A stretch of DNA of 62,503 bases, counting the filler, from Dirinaria sp. TL-2023a (lineage: Eukaryota), in NCBI GenBank assembly GCA_051941275.1. It is 9 parts of 9 records of this genome, joined end to end, with 100 filler letters (N's around TTAATTAATTAA, not from the genome) between each part and the next. Parts side by side here need not be neighbours in the genome. Positions count along the whole stretch, not along the records: positions 55,666 to 62,503 come from JAVEBF010001407.1; 8 more parts are not named here. The stretch is one strand, 5' to 3'. The notes below the pieces were generated by a model. That model worked only from the letters and a program-made list of their open reading frames with translations. It was not told the origin of the DNA and ran no database searches. Within the stretch, counting starts at the first letter, position 1. Each line of letters starts with the position of its first letter. The position numbers were made by a program, and so were the translations under genes. This document shows positions 59,843-60,368 of the stretch, one piece after another.

Positions 59843-60368
59843 TCATCCTTTCCCACTATTGTTTTTCTCGCCCTCAAACATCCAATTGTCAGCATCCAGG
59901 GAGGCCACCTTCCGCCGCAAGCTCGCATGCACTGCGGTCAACAGCTCGCCTGGTTCGCCGGGCTGTAGACTCCGATTGCGGTACATCTCGAGTAATTGCT
60001 TCTCAAGTTCTAACAGACATATTAGCCTCCTTGCCCCTGCCTTTTCACGCTACTTTCCTCTTCCGCCTACAGTAATTCTGACGACTGAATGGCAAGAAGG
60101 GGAAGAACTTACTCTCCCTTTCCCTCTCTACGCTGTCGTCTCCACCCCCATCCACAGCTCCTTCCCCGTCTCCCTCTTGAGATGGTAGCTCGGGCATTGT
60201 GACATCATATTTGCCGTTGACACGTACGATCATGTCTGAGCTGTCGTCAAGAGGAAGATTTGACATTGTACCCGATGTAGTTGTGGAGGAGTGGGTAGGG
60301 CGCCGGGAGAGATGGTGGTGGAAGAGATTGCGGCGCACTGAATCGTTTGCTGTAGGCCGGATAGTCAT
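59843..60368 (-). CDS. Small protein (140 aa) with RRNLF and LDADNWMFE motifs; candidate APC16-like subunit
   Basis: Exons 60368-60113 and 60009-59843, intron GTAAGT...GCTAAT...TAG. The gene model is solid; the function is inferred. Confidence 0.75.

Follow-up and report, generated by a model that had tools for sequence, protein, structure and literature searches.

Here, we describe a small gene on the minus strand of a 62,503-nt stretch of DNA (filler included) from Dirinaria sp. TL-2023a (NCBI GenBank assembly GCA_051941275.1). This whole stretch, hereafter the window, joins nine parts of nine records end to end, and the gene occupies positions 59843..60368, in the part that derives from JAVEBF010001407.1 (positions 55,666 to 62,503). 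It is a real gene that is spliced, expressed and subject to purifying selection. Its product belongs to an unnamed and unannotated protein family without a Pfam entry that is widespread in Pezizomycotina (filamentous ascomycetes). [quoted passage not shown]

Reading of the sequence gives a gene of two exons, with a joined coding sequence of 423 nt that encodes 140 aa and contains a single stop codon, at its end. The features of the gene, in transcript order, are as follows:

59843..60368, minus strand: whole coding region, two exons and one intron; its spliced product reaches 155 bits with the family profile
60369..60431, minus strand: 5′ untranslated leader, given at its minimum extent, which is the reach of an RNA contig (to 60431)
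60113..60368, minus strand: exon 1, which has its ATG at 60368 and codes for residues 1–85 plus one base of codon 86 (the first); 60113..60431 is spanned by an RNA contig
60010..60112, minus strand: intron of 103 nt, GT..AG, with a GTAAGT donor (A/GTAAGT), a GCTAAT branch-like site and a TTAG acceptor; skipped exactly in an RNA contig
59843..60009, minus strand: exon 2, with residues 86–140 and the TGA stop (59845..59843), from the sequence and an RNA contig

Inspection of the reading frame upstream of the start codon revealed no in-frame ATG before the stop at 60410. The mechanical list of open reading frames (ORFs) contains the gene only as separate pieces, 60045..60368 and 59843..59986, and thus misses the exon junction.

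Four RNA-library runs (X1–X4) overlap the stretch, all of them from a single lichen-metagenome sample in a single study. Their contigs are ~92–96% alike to the window, and the source of the RNA is therefore a relative rather than the window genome itself. One of these contigs, record 1 of X1 (1717 nt), joins position 60009 to position 60113 and skips the 103 nt in between. The skipped segment ends in CT..AC on the plus strand, i.e. GT..AG on the minus strand, and matches the predicted intron exactly. This splice support comes from one contig in one of the four runs, as the contigs of X2–X4 end near the exon edges. The latter leave 60010..60112 and 60452..60587 uncovered, and the contigs are uninformative on expression level or transcript ends.

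Comparison with the contigs of this relative also shows how the sequence has been constrained. Seven of the eight coding differences are synonymous, the remaining one being D45G, in the disordered part of the protein. Three further differences (60249, 60255 and 60256), found in one other X3 contig and kept outside this count of eight, amount on hand reading to L38H and one silent change. The same relative's contigs carry 11 differences and one insertion in the 118-nt spacer between the stop codons of this gene and its neighbour GET4, and six differences in the 63 nt upstream of the ATG (60369..60431).

Homologues are numerous. Exon 1 alone, used as a query, matches 54 proteins at E≤0.01 (among 57 candidates), while a profile built from 15 full-length homologues matches 839 proteins at the same threshold (among 8000 candidates scored). 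When 1.84 billion cluster representatives were searched exhaustively with a profile, 510 matched at E≤1e-3, of which 224 are at ≤1e-10 and 29 at ≤1e-30. With a profile made from 42 homologues, the spliced window protein itself reaches 155 bits (E 6.5e-50). The matches listed comprise the best 120 of the 839 proteins and the best 150 of the 510 representatives, and among these the named members come from Lecanoromycetes, Leotiomycetes, Sordariomycetes (Fusarium, Xylariales, Chaetomium, Neurospora tetrasperma and N. hispaniola), Eurotiomycetes (Penicillium, Talaromyces and Arachnomyces) and Dothideomycetes (Aplosporella and Oleoguttula). One family entry is filed under the tree Carpinus fangiana, and probably represents fungal contamination. 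The names given to the listed matches are 'hypothetical', 'uncharacterized' or 'unnamed', plus a few instances of 'UPF0220 protein', and no Pfam domain is on record for the family members among them.

Conservation in this family is concentrated in short motifs. The window protein has VRRNLF at residues 11–16, an acidic, glycine-rich middle part and LRRKVASLDADNWMFE at residues 116–131. Across the family, VRRNLFxxxLSRRPT is near-invariant, with a Ser/Thr-rich stretch following the R-x-L-F motif; further shared elements are SDIVxRDxNG, a pair of helices in the C-terminal part and the terminal motif L..D.W.[FY]E. In the window, these elements are located as follows:

60294..60338, minus strand: N-terminal basic motif VRRNLFHHHLSRRPT, residues 11–25, containing R-x-L-F and RRPT; all of 42 homologues keep R, L, F and RRP unchanged
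60192..60239, minus strand: SDMIVRVNGKYDVTMP, residues 44–59, the SDIVxRDxNGxYxVxxP motif, to which the model gives the form of a small beta-hairpin; its I and G do not vary, and each of D, N and P is conserved at ≥90%
59891..59953, minus strand: C-terminal helix 2, PGELLTAVHASLRRKVASLDA, residues ~105–125, with L-x-x-A-x-x-x-S in its first half, resembling a UIM (ubiquitin-interacting motif); placed by homology to helix 108–128 in the AF2 (AlphaFold2) model of the homologue P0029
59873..59896, minus strand: terminal motif DADNWMFE, residues 124–131, just after the helix; L, D, W and E do not vary among 42 homologues

In an alignment of 42 diverse members, the invariant positions (P0029 numbering) are the start Met, R20, L22, F23, R29, R30, P31, S35, I54, G61, L111, L119, L126, D129, W131 and E134. 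Another 24 columns are conserved at ≥90%, including A114, V115, S118, R120 and K122, and within helix 2 the L, A, V, S, L and R positions reach 90–100%. The terminal motifs recur in a wider set of 139 new cluster representatives, where R[RKSN].LF is found near the N-terminus of 111, [DE].W.[FYHW]E near the C-terminus of 75, and both patterns in 49. Many of the representatives that do not have both motifs are visibly truncated or mis-spliced models, showing the same error as the ORF track here. As for what the N-terminal motif might do, we take its RRPT to be a basophilic-kinase-like site (R-R-x-T). The invariant L-S-R-R-P-T, of which SRRPT lies at residues 21–25 (60294–60308), may also resemble the N-terminal M-L-R-R-x-P-T of Cdc26, which inserts into the TPR groove of APC6.

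The family is widely mis-annotated in databases. Many database models (P0152–P0290) end at the intron (...EKESK or similar) or read into it. Besides, a second intron after ...SEPA is apparent in some species, with models ending in GQS....

The AF2 model of P0029, computed from the 42-sequence alignment, has a mean pLDDT (predicted local distance difference test) of 63 and a pTM (predicted template modelling score) of 0.23. In this model, residues 1–78 are disordered except for a tiny hairpin at 56–64 (strands 56–57 and 63–64), followed by helices at 79–101 and 108–128 and then the D.W.FE tail. Applying an offset of 3, the helices of the window protein are expected at roughly 76–98 and 105–125. 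The N-terminal half is thus predicted to be disordered and the C-terminal part to be helical. A small protein with a disordered N-terminal half and a long C-terminal helix, as AF2 models it here, has the architecture of ANAPC16 (APC16).

Much of this had been proposed in an initial annotation of the stretch, made from the sequence alone. It described a small spliced gene of 140 aa, which both the sequence and the RNA splice bear out, and placed it between GET4 and RAI1, each of which is confirmed by Pfam. Its remark that the ORF track misses exon 2 holds in that the track lists only unjoined pieces and lacks the junction. The three-part anatomy it outlined (N-terminal VRRNLF, acidic disordered middle and C-terminal helix) agrees with our results, and its motifs turn out to be conserved in fungal homologues, R-x-L-F and L..D.W..E being invariant in the 42 and widespread in the 139.

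The same annotation had further suggested, on the basis of motifs of human APC16, that the protein is a divergent APC16-like subunit. A tool-derived pointer to this family comes from the ESM Atlas, where a feature search with P0029 picked up a cluster from arthropods in which 17% of the 1069 members carry PF17256 (ANAPC16). Among the rows shown for P0029, no other has a Pfam name; the cluster stands at rank 14 with a score of 0.78, and it was found again with the Dothideomycete member P0188, at rank 7 of the named clusters with a score of 0.76. The pointer carries weight in that the same rare family appeared twice, without input from the motif comparison in the initial annotation. The C-terminus of human APC16 agrees with residues 116–131 of the window protein at ~7 of 16 positions, among them the L, D, W and F that are invariant in the family. 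An R-K-A-L-F stretch lies in the N-terminal half of human APC16, with PRKALF and EADEWRF as its motifs. A terminal V..L.AD.W.F and an N-terminal R-[KR]-x-L-F are presumably common to metazoan APC16 and the fungal family. Possible resemblances to Cdc26 (RRxPT), Apc13 (DDAW) and Apc15 (C-terminal acidic-W) hint at most at a recurrence of acidic-Trp motifs among small APC/C subunits.

Several results weigh against assigning the family to APC16. Pfam ANAPC16 (PF17256) matched neither of the two window exon translations at E≤10, none of the 15 full-length members at E≤10, none of the 139 representatives at E≤0.05 and none of 28 C-terminal pieces at E≤10. Searching the PDB (177,635 distinct sequences) by hmmsearch with a full-length profile (A1) and a 44-column C-terminal profile (A3) gave no APC/C chain at E≤10, although the HMMER filters make these profile tests effective only to E ~0.1 to 2. 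The chains searched presumably comprise yeast Apc9 and human APC16 as parts of APC/C structures, the latter from entries such as 4UI9. What the profiles did match was THO1 only (E 0.88) for A1, and urocanate hydratase (0.013), a polyketide synthase docking helix (0.14), a Vps27 UIM peptide (0.35) and a designed coil for A3; a phmmer search of the PDB with exon 2 found no APC/C chain either. The Atlas scores of 0.76–0.78 lie below the 0.9 bar of the tool, which makes them a lead only, and the two queries are homologous and therefore count as one piece of evidence, not two. The match could also reflect shared composition, i.e. a disordered acidic protein with a terminal helix. Furthermore, the spacing from RxLF to W is ~112 residues here vs ~58 in human APC16. 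Lastly, Dikarya hosts do without APC7 (PMC3195147), which supplies two of the three contact sites of human APC16 (PMC11473103).

Beyond PF17256, the Pfam Apc9 family gave no match in the scans of the 15 members, 139 representatives and 28 C-terminal pieces. A fungal APC16 is not named in any paper found by literature search, and an APC16 entry is absent from the supplement of PMC11633173.

The proposal of an APC16-like subunit therefore survives in part. Its conserved motifs, its architecture and the Atlas pointer speak for it, while Pfam ANAPC16 matched none of 182 sequences and no APC16 chain was retrieved from the PDB; the profile match to APC16 that the initial annotation called for was found in neither of these searches. 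Our confidence in the APC16/Apc9-like reading is modest because every alignment-based test was negative. We nevertheless favour it on account of the architecture, the vacant slot in Pezizomycotina, the repeated Atlas pointer and the ~7 of 16 C-terminal positions that match human APC16.

The protein may quite possibly belong, as a small disordered subunit or regulator, to another conserved complex that is unrelated to the APC/C, with its two motifs serving as docking sites. Pfam, PDB and homologue searches provide no link by family, structure or annotation, which would suit such a protein, and short-motif resemblances that are noted after the fact are prone to chance. Moreover, in the Atlas search with P0188, the clusters ranking above the ANAPC16 cluster are unnamed, coming from Ascomycota, Nematoda (105 aa) and Streptophyta (133 aa). 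However, the sole named pointer that any tool delivered is ANAPC16, obtained twice, and the architecture fits the type of small subunit seen in the APC/C.

Another reading starts from the N-terminus. RxL(F) is the cyclin-docking motif of the Cip/Kip inhibitors p21 and p27, and RRNLF could accordingly be a hydrophobic-patch motif of a regulator (inhibitor or substrate adaptor) that docks onto a cyclin and its cyclin-dependent kinase (CDK), with the rest of the protein contacting the kinase or its target. The R-x-L-F core is invariant in the 42 homologues and R[RKSN].LF occurs in 111 of the 139 representatives. It resembles that of the Cip/Kip proteins and, as is usual for short docking motifs, lies within a disordered region, with a Ser/Thr-rich stretch behind it. 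We consider this role improbable. RxL matches are short and common, no Pfam CDI or cyclin-related family matched the 15 members (E≤10) or the 139 representatives (E≤0.05), and the Atlas neighbours include no CDK-inhibitor family. Outside this motif, the protein does not resemble a kinase-inhibitory domain. Its strongest other conservation is the C-terminal helix with the W motif, a combination that is not known from any CDK inhibitor.

More improbable still is a ubiquitin-binding adaptor, in which the first half of the last helix (E-L-L-x-A-V-x-A-S-L-R) would act as a UIM on the Ile44 patch of ubiquitin. Such binding would be compatible with a protein residing on an E3 ligase, and a role in the APC/C need not be excluded by it. 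The UIM consensus is phi-x-x-A-x-x-x-S, with flanks that are usually acidic. The family shares the L-x-x-A-x-x-x-S pattern, with its key Ala and Ser conserved at ≥90% and the flanking Leu invariant. The C-terminal profile weakly matches the Vps27 UIM peptide (1o06, E 0.35) over EDPDLKAAIQESLRE, and Pfam UIM_2 matches one of the 28 C-terminal pieces (E 0.36). Both matches are far from significant, however, with the other 27 pieces showing none, and no UIM family was found for the 15 full-length members at E≤10. In addition, the residues after the Ser are basic (R-x-K) where UIMs are usually acidic, and the most conserved part, D.W.[FY]E, falls outside any UIM.

That there is no gene, and that chance ORFs fill the spacer between GET4 and RAI1, is excluded: the single exons indeed match no Pfam family or PDB chain, but a spliced RNA contig, seven silent changes among eight coding differences, hundreds of homologues with invariant motifs and the 155 bits against the family profile contradict it. 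Readings of the motifs as PP1 (protein phosphatase 1) RVxF, LIR (LC3-interacting region), WxxF or W-acidic elements were dropped because their spacing did not fit.

Returning to the APC16/Apc9-like subunit, we can picture how it might work. It would be a small intrinsically disordered adaptor protein, conserved across Pezizomycotina, whose conserved C-terminal helix and L..D.W.[FY]E tail would lie on a shallow, aromatic-lined groove at the Cdc27/BimA (APC3) outer ridge. A second, extended contact, either with a TPR groove, with a co-activator or with a cyclin, would be made by the invariant stretch VRRNLF...LSRRPT near the N-terminus. In this way, the protein might stabilise or tune the TPR lobe and possibly the release of the checkpoint complex. 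We infer Cdc27 as the partner, as well as the binding mode and the homology to APC16.

Lasallia pustulata offers both proteins of the putative pair, with a family member of 140 aa (P0015) and a BimA/Cdc27 of 841 aa (P0326). The latter was retrieved by a motif scan of metagenome contigs, exon translation and a protein search; the scan pattern was back-translated from a 9-residue Cdc27 motif, and one exon (L073) then served as the protein query. The Cdc27 contigs found along the way (L038, L052, L062 and L033; L045, L006, L073, L039 and L027) represent several closely related fungal groups. These groups share one exon structure, with a long exon running from ...GVNIRVPNIFK... to ...LNLDPKV. The named best database matches to L073 are mostly Lecanoromycetes.

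A stronger version of the APC16/Apc9-like reading, which we find doubtful, is that the family is the true APC16 orthologue of filamentous ascomycetes, older than the split between animals and fungi, and that it survived the loss of APC7 with added modules. Upon loss of its main partner APC7 in Dikarya, only the APC3-binding end would have been kept. The RRNLF...RRPT stretch, the hairpin motif and the UIM-like helix would have been gained, and the N-terminal RxLF/D-box-like stretch could serve as a docking site or pseudosubstrate within the protein itself, tuning how the checkpoint complex is released. Apc9 of budding yeast and perhaps Apc14 of fission yeast would have diverged from this orthologue or replaced it.

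In the APC/C, the small disordered subunits bring order to how the TPR lobe stacks and influence the spindle-checkpoint response (PMC11473103, PMC6289045, PMC5717348 and PMC5405113). They evolve fast, leaving their distribution poorly known. An APC16/Apc9-like identity, if true, would complete the list of APC/C subunits for Neurospora, Aspergillus, Fusarium and lichen fungi, provide the first sequence link between APC16 and Apc9, and reveal the role of APC16 in a complex free of APC7. If the family is not APC16, it is still an expressed, strongly constrained and unnamed one, marked by three short invariant motifs and with orthologues in fungi that are open to genetic work, such as NEUTE1DRAFT_144226 of Neurospora.

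The neighbours of the gene both have strong Pfam matches and lie on the plus strand, GET4 with its stop at 59724 and RAI1 with its start at ~60646. Transcription of the small gene thus converges on that of GET4, the two stops lying 118 nt apart, and diverges from that of RAI1. Record 1 of X1 runs unbroken (window 59600–60431) from the 3′ region of GET4 through the spacer into the spliced small gene on the opposite strand, reflecting either overlapping 3′ ends of convergent transcripts or a merge by the assembler. None of the 27 long ORFs scanned in the window is an APC/C gene. The other features of the window assigned by Pfam are ordinary housekeeping genes:

11593–13344: large-subunit catalase with a DJ-1/PfpI-like C-terminal domain
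18985–20406: cytochrome P450
28336–29562: EXS-family protein
29976–31298: Pex2/Pex12 RING peroxin
51577–52707: mitochondrial PDK/BCKDK-type kinase

At 21214–23670 (minus strand), two adjoining open frames match condensin subunit 2 (Cnd2/Barren; E 5e-185 and 3e-90), a gene for mitotic chromosomes that is unrelated to the gene described here. Positions 34000–42000 have a lower G+C content (0.37–0.47, vs ~0.50–0.53 around) and contain one open frame of ≥120 aa only (38241–39569), for which there is no Pfam match. This region may be degraded repeat or transposon DNA.

Metazoan APC16 (ANAPC16) is among the closest known systems. Human APC16 consists of 110 aa, of which only the helix at 52–110 is listed as ordered, with phosphosites at 8, 16 and 26 (PMC5717348). 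It shares with the fungal protein (140 aa) its small size, a disordered N-terminal half rich in Ser/Thr or phosphosites, and an ordered long C-terminal helix. In contrast, similarity at the level of hidden Markov models is absent, and the fungal protein adds the SDIVxRDxNG motif, a second helix and a longer spacer. The visible helix of APC16 rests against shallow TPR ridges on the outside of APC3B, APC7A and APC7B (PMC11473103). Human APC7 is described as sitting on APC3 together with one APC16 molecule, and deletion of either is reported to permit checkpoint-free proliferation (PMC6289045). As for its distribution, the survey of Eme et al. 2011 (PMC3195147) reports APC16 in two jawed-vertebrate representatives only, among the animals sampled, and lists none in fungi. 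The same survey gives APC7 as absent from the ascomycete and basidiomycete representatives.

Two fungal subunits complete the comparison. Saccharomyces cerevisiae Apc9 is, like the protein proposed here, a disordered fungal accessory subunit that belongs to the TPR lobe. The three-turn helix that comes last in Apc9 attaches to APC3B just as APC16 does, although the two have no clear sequence similarity (PMC11473103). Apc9 thereby illustrates that a functional counterpart in fungi can escape sequence searches. Unlike the family described here, it is 265 aa long, with three ordered segments bridging APC3A, APC3B and APC6A (PMC11473103). Eme et al. place Apc9, Apc14 and Apc15 in a few ascomycetes only (PMC3195147). 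Schizosaccharomyces pombe Apc14 is a small, non-essential and poorly conserved APC/C subunit (PMC5405113 and PMC3195147), and would be a candidate for the same slot. It is called 'not well conserved', and its loss results in more mitotic checkpoint complex on the APC/C and slower checkpoint silencing (PMC5405113).

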